UHGV virus genome: UHGV-0090252
From: a virus
Reading direction: 5' to 3' (one strand)
DNA length: 64,000 nucleotides
Position numbers and translations under genes: made by a program. The first letter of the stretch is position 1; every line of letters begins with the position of its first letter. A model generated the notes under the pieces. The model saw only the letters and a list, made by a program, of their open reading frames with translations. It ran no database searches and was not told the DNA's origin. Below are positions 30,280 to 31,186 of this stretch, in pieces.

Positions 30280-30534
30280 ATTAAATCTTTTTAGAGAACT
30301 TCTAAGAACCTAAGCAACAAGGTTCCACAACAAGCTGTAATAACCTTAGAAGCCCTCTAAAAAGACCTAAAAAGGTCTTTGCATAGTCTTGTTTAATCCG
30401 GTGACTAGAACCTTTGGAGAGCTTGATATTATCTCTTCTCCGTGACACCTACTAGGTGTTTTATCAGTGTGTACGACAATACACGAGGGATACCAAAGCA
30501 ACATCCGAATGAAGCTTGGCTTTAAATCTTATTA

Positions 30535-30624
30535 GGCGGTAAGTAAAGGAGTCGAACCCTCACCGTATCTCTACAGTGGCAACTGTTTTCAAGACAGTTT
30601 GGCTACCATTAGCCGCTACCTACC
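30535..30624 (-). tRNA. tRNA-Ser (anticodon TGA), long variable arm
   Basis: 90 nt type II; anticodon stem ACTGT/ACAGT, loop CTTGAAA; CCA not fully encoded. Confidence 0.7.
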
Positions 30625-30637
30625 CCTAATAAGACTT

Positions 30638-30720
30638 TGGCATGGGACGGAGGAGTTGAACCCCTTTGAAACGGTTTTGGAGGCCGTTGCTCATGCCTTA
30701 GAGTCTTAACATCGTCCCAT
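30638..30720 (-). tRNA. atypical tRNA-like gene (possible Trp, anticodon CCA) with enlarged D region
   Basis: Perfect 7-bp acceptor ATGGGAC/GTCCCAT, T-loop TTCAACT, CCA end; anticodon arm resembles tRNA-Trp (loop CTCCAAA) but D region is about 7 nt too long. Confidence 0.4.
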
Positions 30721-30862
30721 ACTATAATTCGAAGCTTACCGTATTATCTCAACACTGTAAAGCCCCTTCTCAGATTATTTACATGTTCTGGAAAACATGA
30801 GATACAGACCACCTCCCTACAGGAAGACCCGCTTAGGTCGTCTAAGTAATCTGCTAACTAAT

Positions 30863-30939
30863 TGGCACACCCTACAGGATTCGAACCTGTAACTCAATGA
30901 TTAGAAGTCATTTGCTCTGTCCAGTTGAACTAAGGGTGC
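30863..30939 (-). tRNA. tRNA-Arg (anticodon TCT)
   Basis: Anticodon stem AATGA/TCATT, loop CTTCTAA. Confidence 0.75.
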
Positions 30940-31186
30940 ATTAATCTTTAAAGACTCTCTTAGAAAGCCCTTAAAGATGCCCACCTTATTAATCATACCG
31001 TGGGCTAGTACGCCAAATTCTTTGATGAGGGATTGGAAGACCTCACTGGTGTTTAGCCTATCAAGCTACTGCCAGAAAAACATTGTCGTTTGCATTTATT
31101 TTAAATTTGCAAAATAGACGCTACGCAACGAAAACTAAGGTTACTATAAAGTAGTCACATCTCAATGTCAACAACTTTATTGAAAT

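Follow-up and report, generated by a model that had tools for sequence, protein, structure and literature searches.

A candidate phage RNA resembling the message half of tmRNA and complementary to host tmRNA, located in the tRNA array of a Felix O1-like phage

What is encoded in long spacers of a phage tRNA array that contain neither tRNAs nor sizeable reading frames? The DNA analysed here (the window, 64,000 nt of the virus genome UHGV-0090252) belongs to a Felix O1-like phage (Felixounavirus) and carries a tRNA array on the minus strand, in which ARAGORN called 25 tRNAs. The original prediction had described three non-tRNA gaps with inverted repeats in this array. These gaps are present: ARAGORN called no tRNA in 30280–30534, 30625–30862 and 30940–31186 (here S1, S2 and S3), and their longest ORFs have only 45–48 aa. 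The middle gap exists as well, but its start had been set to 30721, which presumes a tRNA at 30625–30720, where ARAGORN calls none and the Rfam score is only 23 bits; the true extent is 30625–30862. All three quoted repeats were found, AAAGACC/GGTCTTT at 30361–30380, CATGTT/AACATG at ~30782–30800 and TTTGCA/TGCAAA at 31091–31115. The features of all spacers lie on the minus strand, which had been missed. Likewise absent from the original prediction were the tag frame, promoter and host-tmRNA complementarity presented here for S3.

Short hairpins alone, from which an RNA signal had been read, are within chance, whereas folding, conservation and covariation go beyond it. Compared with shuffled sequences, S1 (z = −3.5) and S3 (z = −3.9) fold well, with 0/200 shuffles as good in each case, while S2 reaches only z = −1.9 (7/200 shuffles as good). 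An Rfam scan had been suggested as a check; run at permissive thresholds, it gave no family at its threshold in any spacer, and the matches to MIR473, Plastid-ycf2, mir-6302 and RsaE were discarded as noise or antisense tRNA matches. The conservation analysis suggested alongside it bore out the idea of RNA elements: the cores of S1 and S2 are near-invariant across three genera, and S3 shows strong covariation and has hundreds of phage homologues. The three gaps are not equivalent. S3, for which no function had been proposed, can be identified as tmRNA-like from its tag reading frame, stop-codon hairpin and pseudoknots, and is predicted to encode a structured RNA of ~160–200 nt with the following parts.

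31143–31171, minus strand: predicted sigma-70-type promoter, TTGACA at 31171–31166, 17-nt spacer, TATAGT at 31148–31143
31108–31137, minus strand: 5′ domain UAGUUUUCGUUGCGUAGCGUCUAUUUUGCA, complementary to nt 76–107 of E. coli tmRNA
31094–31107, minus strand: A-rich stretch AAAUUUAAAAUAAAU before the resume codon
31058–31093, minus strand: tag frame without start codon, ANDNVFLAVA, then TGA TAG
31046–31075, minus strand: helix 5-like hairpin, CUGG...GUAGC-loop-GCUA...CCAG, with the stop codons in or next to the loop
31013–31045, minus strand: pseudoknot a, stem 1 UGAGG/CCUCA, loop CCAA pairing with a downstream UUGG
30979–31012, minus strand: pseudoknot b, stem 1 CGUAC/GUAUG, stem 2 GCCCAC/GUGGGC, conserved loop GAUUAAUAA
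30940–30978, minus strand: 3′ hairpin AUCUUUAAGGGC...GUCUUUAAAGAU plus UAAU, directly upstream of tRNA-Arg

The promoter, with 11/12 consensus matches the best site of the 5.6 kb scanned, abuts the 5′ end of S3, and transcription is predicted to start at ~A31136. It is kept in the phage Mordin; Erwinia phage Omen has TTGACA-17-TAATCT in the same place, and in SSU5-like and lambdoid phages independent promoters immediately precede the element. Four lineages have a promoter bordering on the 5′ end of S3. A promoter does not define this end in every case, because copies in some siphoviruses lie within a longer transcript, in which they adjoin tRNA-like modules. Some Felixounaviruses carry a 90-nt insertion between promoter and RNA start. 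At the 3′ side, S3 is abutted by tRNA-Arg; the 3′ hairpin is outside the unit common to the phage lineages, its flank varies among Felixounaviruses, and it probably is a processing or leader element.

The tag frame reads GCA AAC GAC AAT GTT TTT CTG GCA GTA GCT TGA TAG (ANDNVFLAVA; for comparison, the E. coli SsrA tag is ANDENYALAA). It has no start codon and, as read from the sequence, an in-frame stop upstream; its resume codon is part of the TTTGCA-13-TGCAAA repeat. The preceding A-rich stretch shares A-U-A at −6 to −4 with E. coli tmRNA (AUAGUC) and is aligned by the Rfam tmRNA models exactly to the tmRNA consensus AAAAUAAuUGCaAACGA; both the tmRNA and the permuted-tmRNA models align the resume/tag region. 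For the Mordin homologue, ARAGORN gives the identical tag ANDNVFLAVA. About 20 tags fit the pattern A-N-[DE]-x-x-[FY]-L-A-[VA]-A, and ANDDVVLMAA occurs additionally. Across lineages, synonymous changes affect codons 1, 2, 3, 4, 6, 8, 9, and 10, such as GCA/GCT, AAC/AAT, GAC/GAT, TTT/TTC, GCA/GCC, GTA/GTG and GCT/GCC/GCG. Single-nucleotide codon differences amount to 842 synonymous vs 771 non-synonymous ones in the tag frame; the two remaining frames give 113:1234 and 214:956. Since the tag varies mostly synonymously, it is probably translated. Five phage lineages have all kept the frame without start codon, the A-U-A that sets the frame and the stop codons in the loop.

The predicted helices of S3 were paired in 88.6% of cells. 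Changes on both sides of a pair occurred in 135 cells vs 38 ± 5 in shuffles (0/500 reached the observed value), and the covariation score was 0.160, compared with 0.079 for shuffles and 0.03–0.08 for slid controls. The outer stem of the helix 5-like hairpin is invariant, with one covarying inner pair (CG in 33 sequences, UA in 15). Many two-sided changes characterize pseudoknot a (UA/CG, GC/AU; CCAA/UUGG to CCAG/CUGG or CCGA/UCGG), and stem 2 of pseudoknot b is wholly different by lineage (GCCC/GGGC, CCCUGA/UCAGGG, CGGGAG/CUCCCG). In total, three helices show compensatory changes, and both pseudoknots are supported by covariation.

S3 shares with tmRNA (SsrA; RF00023) a start-codon-less frame closing with hydrophobic residues and a stop, a GCA (Ala) resume codon, an A-rich stretch with U/A at −5/−4, an ANDENYALAA-like tag, stops in a helix-5-like hairpin and H-type pseudoknots downstream. 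It differs from tmRNA in being phage-encoded, in having only two pseudoknots and no helix 2, and in carrying an added 5′ domain antisense to host tmRNA. A tRNA-like domain was found neither by ARAGORN, which called no tmRNA anywhere in the window, nor by Rfam; S3 lacks a G3:U70 acceptor stem, T arm, and CCA. The Rfam match spans only model positions 56–294, with both model ends absent, and the scores of 15.2 bits (RF00023) and 29.2 bits (RF04321, borrowing the T arm of tRNA-Ile) lie below the gathering threshold of 47 bits.

S3 has homologues in 596 phage records, spread over at least five lineages that are unrelated to each other (Ounavirinae, Kuttervirus, Schitoviridae, lambdoid siphoviruses, and SSU5-like phage-plasmids). 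Among bacteria, only 1 of 185,579 species-representative genomes contains the element, and so do ~35 E. coli records, as prophage copies. As a self-contained accessory gene, it is exchanged horizontally by enterobacterial phages that are not related to one another. It is not a recent capture of ssrA, because a covariance model built from the phage sequences scores only 8.7 bits on E. coli ssrA (E = 2), with an alignment limited to the message/helix-5 part. In lambdoid and SSU5-like phages, the element is surrounded by large multi-domain non-coding loci. Hundreds of genomes in phage lineages of therapeutic and biocontrol use (Felix O1-like, Kuttervirus) carry the gene, and we found no published description of it in the literature on phage tmRNA-like RNAs, the tag peptides, tmRNA antisense RNAs, Felix O1 transcriptomes, or YrlA. 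To our knowledge, the phage tmRNA genes described so far are complete or, in one case, comprise the tRNA-like half only.

The message region of tmRNA is single-stranded, and the 5′ domain of S3 is complementary to it. In the window, UAGUUUUCGUUG pairs with CGACGAAAACUA (12 bp) of E. coli tmRNA, followed by the pairs GCG/CGC, CUAU/AUAG and UUUGC/GCAAA, giving a duplex of −27.3 kcal/mol vs −20.4 ± 2.2 for dinucleotide shuffles (p ~0.013). With E. coli tmRNA as the only host tmRNA compared, the best duplex formed with the full ssrA sequence starts at nt 61–81 and ends at ~nt 105–108 in all 66 variants. Pairing with ssrA beats pairing with the variant's own message region in 66/66 cases (mean −31.8 vs −15.8 kcal/mol). 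Thirteen divergent 5′ domains form 22–30 bp at the same ssrA site, with moderate significance for each variant (p = 0.003–0.08), and the shared site is not independent evidence because the lineages share ancestry; the longest exact match, 10 nt, is alone within chance. The motif GUUUUCG is nearly invariant, and the same host stretch is matched by the lineage-specific sequences CUAUUUUU, GCGACUGUUU, GCGACUUUGCGG, GCGGCUGUUUUU, and GCGAUUAUGCGG. The paired stretch covers the frame-setting part, resume codon, and codons 1–6 of tmRNA, and extends from the end of pseudoknot 1 to codon 6, including the frame-setting nucleotides U85/A86. Host codons 3–6 (GAC GAA AAC UAC) are never retained in phage codons 3–6; the 5′-domain segment in predicted pairing with them is AGUUUUCG. 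By this extended and conserved complementarity, S3 RNA classifies as a putative trans-acting antisense RNA on host tmRNA. As a point against the docking proposal made below, a portion of the 5′ domain is also similar to tmRNA nt 14–32 in the sense orientation (UUCG...UUUGCG) and is able to pair with the resume region of S3 itself. In whole-spacer RNAduplex runs against tmRNA and of the spacers against each other, long ‘duplexes’ were no better than shuffles and were rejected. An exact-complement search against tmRNA found nothing for S2, and a 9-mer in S1 sits in a lineage-specific insertion and was taken as chance.

The tmRNA–SmpB system is the main bacterial ribosome-rescue and protein-tagging system and a drug target. 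Our leading reading, to which we give slightly less than an even chance, is that S3 RNA combines a tmRNA-derived message half with an antisense 5′ domain and acts as a trans-acting template that docks on host tmRNA. The message half would have been retained with its A-rich frame-setting stretch, GCA resume codon, 10-codon tag frame, stop-codon hairpin, and two pseudoknots, whereas the tRNA-like half would have been lost and replaced by the ~30-nt 5′ domain complementary to host tmRNA. Through such an RNA, the phage may block or re-program host ribosome rescue. The RNA would be transcribed from its own predicted sigma-70 promoter at ~A31136 and receive its 3′ end presumably by RNase P cleavage at tRNA-Arg. 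While the RNA is free, some of the 5′ domain is predicted to fold onto its own resume region, leaving AGUUUU exposed; the computed complementarity suggests that the 5′ domain could then pair with the single-stranded host message region and mask the host tag template. The phage frame would exit the duplex where the host frame normally begins, so that the alanine-charged tRNA-like domain of the host and SmpB could deliver stalled ribosomes to the phage template; the tag on rescued proteins would then be ANDNVFLAVA, not ANDENYALAA.

We infer this template swap because the tag evolves as a translated peptide despite the lack of a start codon and of a tRNA-like domain. Without the latter, charging, SmpB/EF-Tu binding and ribosome entry could be possible only via a partner RNA. 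That host tmRNA–SmpB indeed writes the phage-specified tag from the docked cassette, a three-partner trans-translation, appears to us plausible but somewhat more doubtful than even. We know of no precedent for a ribosome resuming on a template that is tied to tmRNA by base pairing alone. It counts against the proposed complex that the host message region and pseudoknots would stay attached, and the phage tags resemble the host tag so closely that swapping would bring no obvious benefit. If true, this would be the first virus re-coding a host degradation tag, phages would manipulate ribosome rescue directly via a widespread, unannotated message-half RNA with an antisense handle, and the element would provide a natural test of supplying the tmRNA template in trans as well as a possible tool for tag re-programming.

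Another explanation is that S3 RNA is an antisense inhibitor only, which blocks or destroys host tmRNA by template masking or RNase III cleavage and shuts down the tagging of phage products, with its body an undecoded scaffold or decoy from a captured ssrA fragment. The same complementarity data suffice for it, no unprecedented ribosome step is needed, and there is a precedent in mycobacteriophage DS6A, whose tRNA-like-domain-only tmRNA is thought to interfere with host trans-translation (PMC4131195, PMC11915505). Yet an untranslated scaffold would not keep the coding signature of 842:771 vs 113:1234 and 214:956, and the start-codon-less frame, A-U-A, and in-loop stops persist across the five lineages; we consider inhibition alone unlikely. 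DS6A and S3 are alike in being phage-borne partial tmRNAs and differ in that the former is the tRNA-like half only, the latter the message half plus antisense domain. Complete tmRNAs are found in Bxz1-type mycobacteriophages and Bacillus phage G, and no enterobacterial phage is among those with ssrA in the two surveys (PMC4131195, PMC11915505).

The proposed template-docking cassette of S3 sits in a locus with further RNA-related components, namely a Ro60 homologue, a YrlA-like RNA, and two other ultra-conserved RNAs. The latter are S1 and S2, highly conserved non-coding elements confined to Ounavirinae. A search of 5,426 E. coli genomes for host homologues of S1 and S2 returned none, only tRNA-level matches and prophage copies of S3. 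The two spacers contain the following elements.

30355–30488, minus strand: S1 core of ~135 nt, virtually identical across three genera
30280–30370, minus strand: long leader hairpin UCUUUUUAGAGGGCUUCUAAG/CUUAGAAGUUCUCUAAAAAGA with the end AAAGAUUUAAU, directly upstream of tRNA-Leu
30721–30862, minus strand: S2 core, multi-hairpin, with a CAGAUUA/UAAUCUG outer stem around two hairpins
30638–30720, minus strand: non-canonical tRNA-Trp-like gene within S2, with an 8-bp acceptor stem and an encoded GCCA end

Four or five hairpins are predicted within the S1 core, which has the terminator-like AAAGACC-UUUUUA-GGUCUUUUU at its end. The leader hairpin shows compensatory changes when the window is compared with Mordin. 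In the S2 core, which is near-invariant across Felixounavirus, Mooglevirus, and Suspvirus, CAUGUU/AACAUG forms one of the two enclosed hairpins. Beside it, relatives have either 130 nt of additional tRNA-like sequence or a gene for a homing endonuclease. The tRNA-Trp-like gene scores 23 bits against the Rfam tRNA-Sec model and is not called by ARAGORN. Its anticodon loop CUCCAAA is closed by a C:A mismatch and its D region is irregular; acceptor, T arm and anticodon stem are supported, the latter by five compensated pairs (AACGG/CCGTT vs GTAAG/CTTAC in Mordin, KMM2, and CHB7). This loop gives the anticodon CCA (Trp), and Trp is the sole amino acid missing from the array. A promoter-like TTGAGA-17-AATTAT (30752–30724) lies just upstream.

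We regard S1 and S2 as further candidate stable or processing RNAs of an RNA-handling locus. T4 encodes the stable RNAs ‘species 1’ and ‘species 2’ (rnaC, rnaD), non-tRNA RNAs within its tRNA cluster, for which we know of no tag frame. As non-tRNA RNAs in a phage tRNA cluster, presumably released by tRNA-processing enzymes, they may serve as the best available analogy for S1 and S2. The original prediction had drawn this analogy for all the gaps; its view of the gaps as RNA genes holds insofar as they are conserved non-tRNA RNA elements, but the specific T4 analogy found no support in the tests made, and no T4-type phage was among the similarity-search matches.

Alternatively, S1 and S2 might be Y-RNA-like partners of the phage Ro60 homologue, tethering it to nucleases or RNA substrates, which would be compatible with the template-docking explanation of S3. 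The array is headed, at 32746–34161 and near S1 and S2, by a gene for a 471-aa protein that matches Ro60/TROVE proteins, a phage Ro60 among them, in structure over its full length (its PHROG 850 is annotated ‘RNA-binding protein’). Bacterial and phage Ro60 genes usually have nearby Y RNAs, often more than one (PMC4201824), and the cores of both spacers are non-coding and combine extreme conservation with a predicted structure. An element with the YrlA order of T arm, closed acceptor hairpin and D arm indeed occurs at ~31652–31585, outside the three gaps. S1 and S2 themselves differ from YrlA: they contain no T-AS-D module and, apart from the separate tRNA-Trp-like gene, no tRNA-like module, they match no Y RNA or YrlA in Rfam, and the array strand has no GNCGAAN0-1G motif, a feature of the Ro60-binding module. 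In addition, their folds do not connect the 5′ end with the 3′ end by a terminal stem, and the S1 core is invariant and gives no covariation evidence. A Ro60 partnership of S1 and S2 has, in our estimate, a rather small chance.

The YrlA-order element ~450 nt upstream of S3 also enters another explanation, in which S3 is the coding piece of a multi-piece phage tmRNA and another phage locus supplies the tRNA-like acceptor part, the candidates being this permuted tRNA-like element (~31652–31585) and the tRNA-like modules flanking the siphovirus copies. Two-piece tmRNAs occur naturally (RF04321; alpha-proteobacteria, cyanobacteria, and some beta-proteobacteria), and their coding RNA is likewise apart from the base-paired 3′ acceptor piece. 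Their coding piece has the acceptor 5′ strand, however, and both pieces come from one gene of one organism, whereas in the docking proposal the partner is an intact host tmRNA paired at its message region. The permuted element is real, with T arm, D arm and a 7-bp acceptor hairpin in which all differences between Mordin and the window are compensated. In Mordin, ARAGORN joins both features as a permuted ‘tmRNA*’, and the M. smegmatis YrlA of the same architecture is cut by RNase P and gains CCA (PMC4201824). The joined call was made in only 1 of ~45 loci, though, and the element has no G3:U70 alanine identity (G-C, U:G, C-G in the window; G-C, A-U, A-U in Mordin); the siphovirus modules, read from the sequence, lack G3:U70 as well. 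Three tRNA genes and a promoter separate the two pieces, S3 RNA has neither an acceptor 5′ strand nor complementarity to the permuted element, and no such partner was called for the Kuttervirus, Schitoviridae, and SSU5-like copies. A sense copy of the target ACGAAAACTA is absent from the window. The permuted element fits better with a YrlA-type Y RNA beside the Ro60 homologue, and we judge a multi-piece phage tmRNA improbable.

Could the gaps be ordinary spacers with promoters, terminators, and processing hairpins, and S3 a decaying captured ssrA fragment? The gaps do contain sites resembling promoters and terminators, as well as leader hairpins with AAAGAUUUAAU at their end, and the homing endonuclease genes that relatives carry in S1 and S2 imply that parts tolerate disruption. 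Decay would not, however, produce compensatory changes in three helices or codon-level constraint, nor would a decaying fragment last in 596 records of five lineages or own a promoter; for S3, covariation, codon constraint and spread already largely refute this view. The S1 and S2 cores are moreover more conserved than their surroundings. We consider ordinary spacers very improbable. Short proteins, annotated in several GenBank records as hypothetical proteins (e.g., in JohannRWettstein) and corresponding to ORFs of 45–48 aa, have a negligible chance of being the gap products: opposite S3, where the window has a 46-aa plus-strand ORF (30977–31117), an ATG ORF of at least 20 aa is missing from 46 of 66 homologues, and the 45-aa and 48-aa minus-strand ORFs of S1 are both frame-shifted by 2-nt and 11-nt indels in Mooglevirus and Suspvirus. 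In database records, the place of S3 is left blank or filled with a spurious ‘hypothetical protein’.

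The window derives from a Felixounavirus (Felix O1-like, Ounavirinae), and its region 30200-31270 shares 95-99% identity with many congeneric phages of Escherichia, Salmonella and Shigella. ARAGORN called 25 tRNA genes between 27689 and 32580, every one on the minus strand, and array features are therefore read on that strand here. No tRNA was called in three gaps, S1 (30280-30534), S2 (30625-30862) and S3 (30940-31186), whose longest ORFs have 45-48 aa. The original prediction of three spacers with inverted repeats, lacking tRNAs and ORFs of at least 60 aa, was thus essentially correct, and the repeats it named are present in the sequence. 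Its start for the middle gap, 30721, assumed a tRNA at 30625-30720; this was not called by ARAGORN and reached only 23 bits against the Rfam tRNA-Sec model, but a real tRNA-like gene does lie at 30638-30720. Short hairpins by themselves are unremarkable; as whole spacers, S1 (z = -3.5) and S3 (z = -3.9) fold better than shuffled sequences and S2 weakly so (z = -1.9). The suggested analogy to small stable phage RNAs was right in spirit, but missed that S3 is a tmRNA-like RNA.

Features in and beside the tRNA array
27863-28660, minus strand: gene of a DUF7217 protein, embedded in the array
29049-29606, minus strand: gene of a DUF7338 protein, embedded in the array, membrane-associated in look from its sequence
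30638-30720, minus strand: tRNA-Trp-like gene with 8-bp acceptor stem, encoded GCCA end and T arm
31171-31143, minus strand: sigma-70 promoter of the S3 RNA, near-consensus TTGACA-17-TATAGT, best site in the 5.6 kb scanned
~31585-31652, minus strand: permuted tRNA-like element in spacer 31421-31851, with T arm GAAGGTTCGATTCCTTC, 7-bp acceptor hairpin closed by AGAG and D arm, in that order
32746-34161, minus strand: 471-aa protein just upstream, at the head of the array; DUF2828 and DUF7788, PHROG "RNA-binding protein"

An alignment of four distant S3 copies yielded the core AAAUAAAU GCA AAC GAC AAU GUU UUU CUG GCA GUA GCU UGA UAG, a frame without start codon and with an in-frame stop upstream that encodes ANDNVFLAVA (compare ANDENYALAA, the SsrA tag of E. 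coli). The resume-codon and tag consensus of the Rfam tmRNA and permuted-tmRNA models aligned to exactly this core, with scores of 15 and 29 bits that do not reach the threshold of 47, and at the homologous position of Citrobacter phage Mordin ARAGORN calls a "tmRNA*" with the tag peptide ANDNVFLAVA. Across lineages the tag reads A-N-[DE]-x-x-[FY]-L-A-[VA]-A, with the exception ANDDVVLMAA in Schitoviridae and phage Lewi. In a sample chosen independently of the tag, nearly all tag codons showed synonymous changes (GCA/GCT, AAC/AAT, GAC/GAT, GAA/GAG, TTT/TTC, TAT/TAC, GCA/GCC, GTA/GTG, GCT/GCC/GCG). Single-nucleotide codon differences were synonymous or non-synonymous in a ratio of 842:771 in the tag frame vs 113:1234 and 214:956 in the other two. 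Such a pattern is characteristic of a peptide that is translated. None of six tag peptides was found in the searchable literature. Several records annotate a hypothetical protein of 46 aa on the opposite strand, but this ORF lacks conservation: in 46 of the 66 homologues that strand has no ATG ORF of at least 20 aa.

The structure drawn on the 66-sequence alignment comprises a helix-5-like hairpin containing the stop codons, one pseudoknot (UGAGG/CCUCA) whose loop CCAA pairs with UUGG downstream, and a second (CGUAC/GUAUG and GCCCAC/GUGGGC) around the conserved loop GAUUAAUAA. In total, 88.6% of the cells are paired and 135 changed on both sides of a helix, vs 38 ± 5 in shuffles (0 of 500 reaching this number); the covariation score was 0.160, vs 0.079 in shuffles and 0.03-0.08 with slid partners. 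The first pseudoknot's loop pairing varies by phage (CCAA/UUGG, CCAG/CUGG, CCGA/UCGG). A covariance model built from this alignment detected every tested relative and, in the window, a single copy at 30962-31138 (145 bits, E = 1e-31); E. coli ssrA scored only 8.7 bits, at the message/helix-5 position, so S3 represents a tmRNA-like body rather than a host gene copied recently.

The predicted transcription start, about A31136, is where AGUUUUCG begins. Mordin keeps this promoter, Erwinia phage Omen has its own at the same place, and in SSU5-like and lambdoid copies promoters precede (A)GUUUUCG by a few bases. On the 3' side a hairpin is followed directly by tRNA-Arg, and neither ARAGORN nor Rfam detected an acceptor stem or T arm as part of the element. 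Published surveys report complete tmRNAs for Bacillus phage G and some mycobacteriophages and, for phage DS6A, the tRNA-like domain alone; neither an enterobacterial phage nor a form restricted to the message part is mentioned in them (PMC4131195, PMC11915505).

Two variations concern the flanks. At the position equivalent to 31138/31139, JohannRWettstein (locus L001, about 3652-3741) and many Felixounaviruses carry an insertion of 90 nt bounded by terminal inverted repeats (TTCAGCATATGTA...TACATATACTGAA). It resembles a miniature mobile element, sits precisely between the -10 box and the point where the S3 RNA begins, and would alter the RNA's 5' end. In some Felixounaviruses a short tRNA-Trp (71 nt, anticodon at position 30; L076 3383-3453, L114 7866-7936) replaces tRNA-Arg, and the 3' neighbour is therefore variable.

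Sensitive blastn matched S3 in 596 phage records. The matches beyond those of S1 and S2 span query positions of about 85-209 and come from Kuttervirus (Ackermannviridae, about 157 kb), siphoviruses of Klebsiella, Enterobacter and Escherichia (46-60 kb), the Schitoviridae podovirus Ithacavirus SP154, SSU5-like phage-plasmids and Erwinia Kolesnikvirus, where the element lies in unannotated DNA or beneath dubious small ORFs. Exact-pattern scans of IMG/VR returned at least 120 and 117 matching stretches; the same tag-independent pattern matched one of 185,579 species-representative bacterial genomes. The carriers among matching E. coli genome records, about 35, are prophages and phage-plasmids. 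Being rare in bacteria and present across unrelated phages, S3 is therefore a phage gene moving between phage lineages. In 46-60 kb siphoviruses (L008, L012, L017, L020, L002), SSU5-like phages (L004-L006) and Kuttervirus (L003) it sits within non-coding loci of 0.6-1 kb with recurrent CACAAC-AGGTAAGAGCATTG...CAGTGCTCTTTCC-GTTGTGG stems bearing variable inserts, tRNA-like units without D arm, a GTTGTGGTGAATGCGCAGGCTGATGCG...CCGGAGTTCAGCACCGGCCACCACAAC domain and a CATGTTGGGTCGAACAT motif; these loci may be larger composite RNAs.

GUUUUCG is the only nearly invariant part of the variable 5' region. This region contains UAGUUUUCGU, the exact complement of nt 97-106 of ssrA (ACGAAAACUA, codons 3-6) from an annotated E. 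coli genome, a 10-nt match that alone is within chance. In RNAduplex runs against the full-length tmRNA, the first 34-45 nt of every lineage paired best with one common stretch, from nt 61-81 to about nt 105-108, in duplexes of 22-30 bp and -23 to -35 kcal/mol (dinucleotide-shuffle p 0.003-0.08 per variant). All 66 aligned variants target it, with the caveat that the phage lineages are mutually related, and in all 66 this pairing beats that with their own message region (mean -31.8 vs -15.8 kcal/mol). In the window, UAGUUUUCGUUG pairs with CGACGAAAACUA, GCG with CGC (resume codon included), CUAU with AUAG (U85/A86) and UUUGC with GCAAA; U85 and A86 are the frame-setting nucleotides of E. coli tmRNA. 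Lineages complement the host stretch AAAAAAUAGUCGC differently (CUAUUUUU, GCGACUGUUU, GCGACUUUGCGG, GCGGCUGUUUUU, GCGAUUAUGCGG), and the host nucleotides are never kept in phage codons 3-6. No sense copy of the target occurs elsewhere in the window. Part of the 5' domain is predicted to fold onto its own resume region, leaving AGUUUU free.

S3 thus combines a tag frame under peptide-level selection and a conserved complementarity to the host template region with the lack of a tRNA-like domain. We tentatively favor the possibility that it replaces the host tmRNA template by docking: the RNA would mask the host template and, at the site behind pseudoknot 1 from which the host frame normally emerges, offer a frame-setting stretch and resume codon of its own; the host tRNA-like domain and SmpB would then bring ribosomes to the phage template. 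Lambdoid and Kuttervirus copies have a hairpin upstream of the message region, which fits this picture because pseudoknot 1 of E. coli tmRNA is functionally replaceable by a hairpin. Pure antisense inhibition of host tmRNA by the same pairing is unlikely, as it leaves the codon-level constraint unexplained. Judged by its sequence, S3 is a new, widespread tmRNA variant without tRNA-like domain and with an antisense handle for host tmRNA; template replacement by docking is a testable hypothesis, not a result.

Along its full length the 471-aa protein (model pLDDT 81.7) matches structures of Ro60/TROVE (+vWA) proteins, among them the Ro60 of Thermus phage phiLo (E = 7e-9 to 1e-6, TM 0.55-0.62). 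It has more than 2,000 homologues at E <= 1e-5; wherever a source is named it is a phage, and jumbo phages of Yersinia and Vibrio are among them. YrlA-type Y RNAs are encoded beside Ro60 in bacteria and phages (PMC4201824), and the permuted tRNA-like element shares their T-AS-D architecture; it has no Rfam match and no YrlA Ro60-binding motif. Its acceptor hairpin is fully compensated between the window (ACUCGGC/GUCGAGU) and Mordin (ACCCUUC/GAAGGGU). The locus thus resembles an RNA-handling island in which a Ro60 homologue, a Y-RNA-like element, a tmRNA-like RNA and tRNAs occur together.

This element is also the acceptor piece of the "tmRNA*" in Mordin, where ARAGORN joins it to the tag, and lies about 450 nt upstream of S3, so that both could be parts of a phage-encoded split tmRNA. 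We consider this rather improbable, since the element lacks G3:U70, three tRNAs and a promoter intervene, and the link was made in one of about 45 loci. S3 is a conserved, structured RNA with a promoter, and an ordinary spacer or relic is a very improbable reading of it. That the gaps encode small proteins is hardly credible; both ORFs inside S1 are disrupted by indels in relatives.

S1 and S2 are restricted to Ounavirinae (about 255 phage records by sensitive blastn). The S1 core (~135 nt, about 30488-30355) is near-identical in Felixounavirus, Mooglevirus and Suspvirus, with divergent flanks containing indels; it terminates in a terminator-like hairpin, the originally noted AAAGACC/GGTCTTT, followed by a long leader hairpin with compensatory changes and tRNA-Leu. 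The similarly conserved S2 core (30862-30721) has a predicted outer stem around two hairpins; at its end, immediately before the tRNA-Trp-like gene, is a promoter-like site. The latter's anticodon stem differs by five compensated pairs between the window (AACGG/CCGTT) and Mordin, KMM2 and CHB7 (GTAAG/CTTAC); its loop CUCCAAA with the Trp anticodon CCA is conserved, the closing pair is a C:A mismatch, and Trp is the sole amino acid absent from the array. Neither spacer has an Rfam family, a host homologue or meaningful complementarity to tmRNA or S3, and their neighborhood is the best lead to their function. In relatives, variable parts of S2 and S1 hold endonuclease genes (L183 938-1342, Sf19; L185 739-1080, CHB7), namely those of a predicted homing endonuclease and of a PD-(D/E)XK nuclease. 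Mooglevirus and Suspvirus have an extra tRNA-like piece of ~120 nt (GGTCAAG...CTTGACTGCCA) at the S2 start that is absent from the window.

Additionally, several tRNAs share a 5' leader, AAAGAT(T)TAAT (30284-30294, 30940-30950, 31421-31436 and 29041-29052, minus strand), which in two cases forms the 3' arm of a long hairpin and may serve the array as a shared processing signal. Three copies of another module lie on the minus strand (~31684-31710, 32222-32250, 32393-32418; partners near 31569, 32182, 32340), in spacers between tRNA-Glu, Met, Asn and Asp/Lys. It consists of a promoter-like TTTACA/TTGACA-GAAGACCGTTTACAGCA and, 40-130 nt on, ACGGTCTGGTAAT (inverted repeat AGACCGT/ACGGTCT), and could be an operator or processing hairpin.
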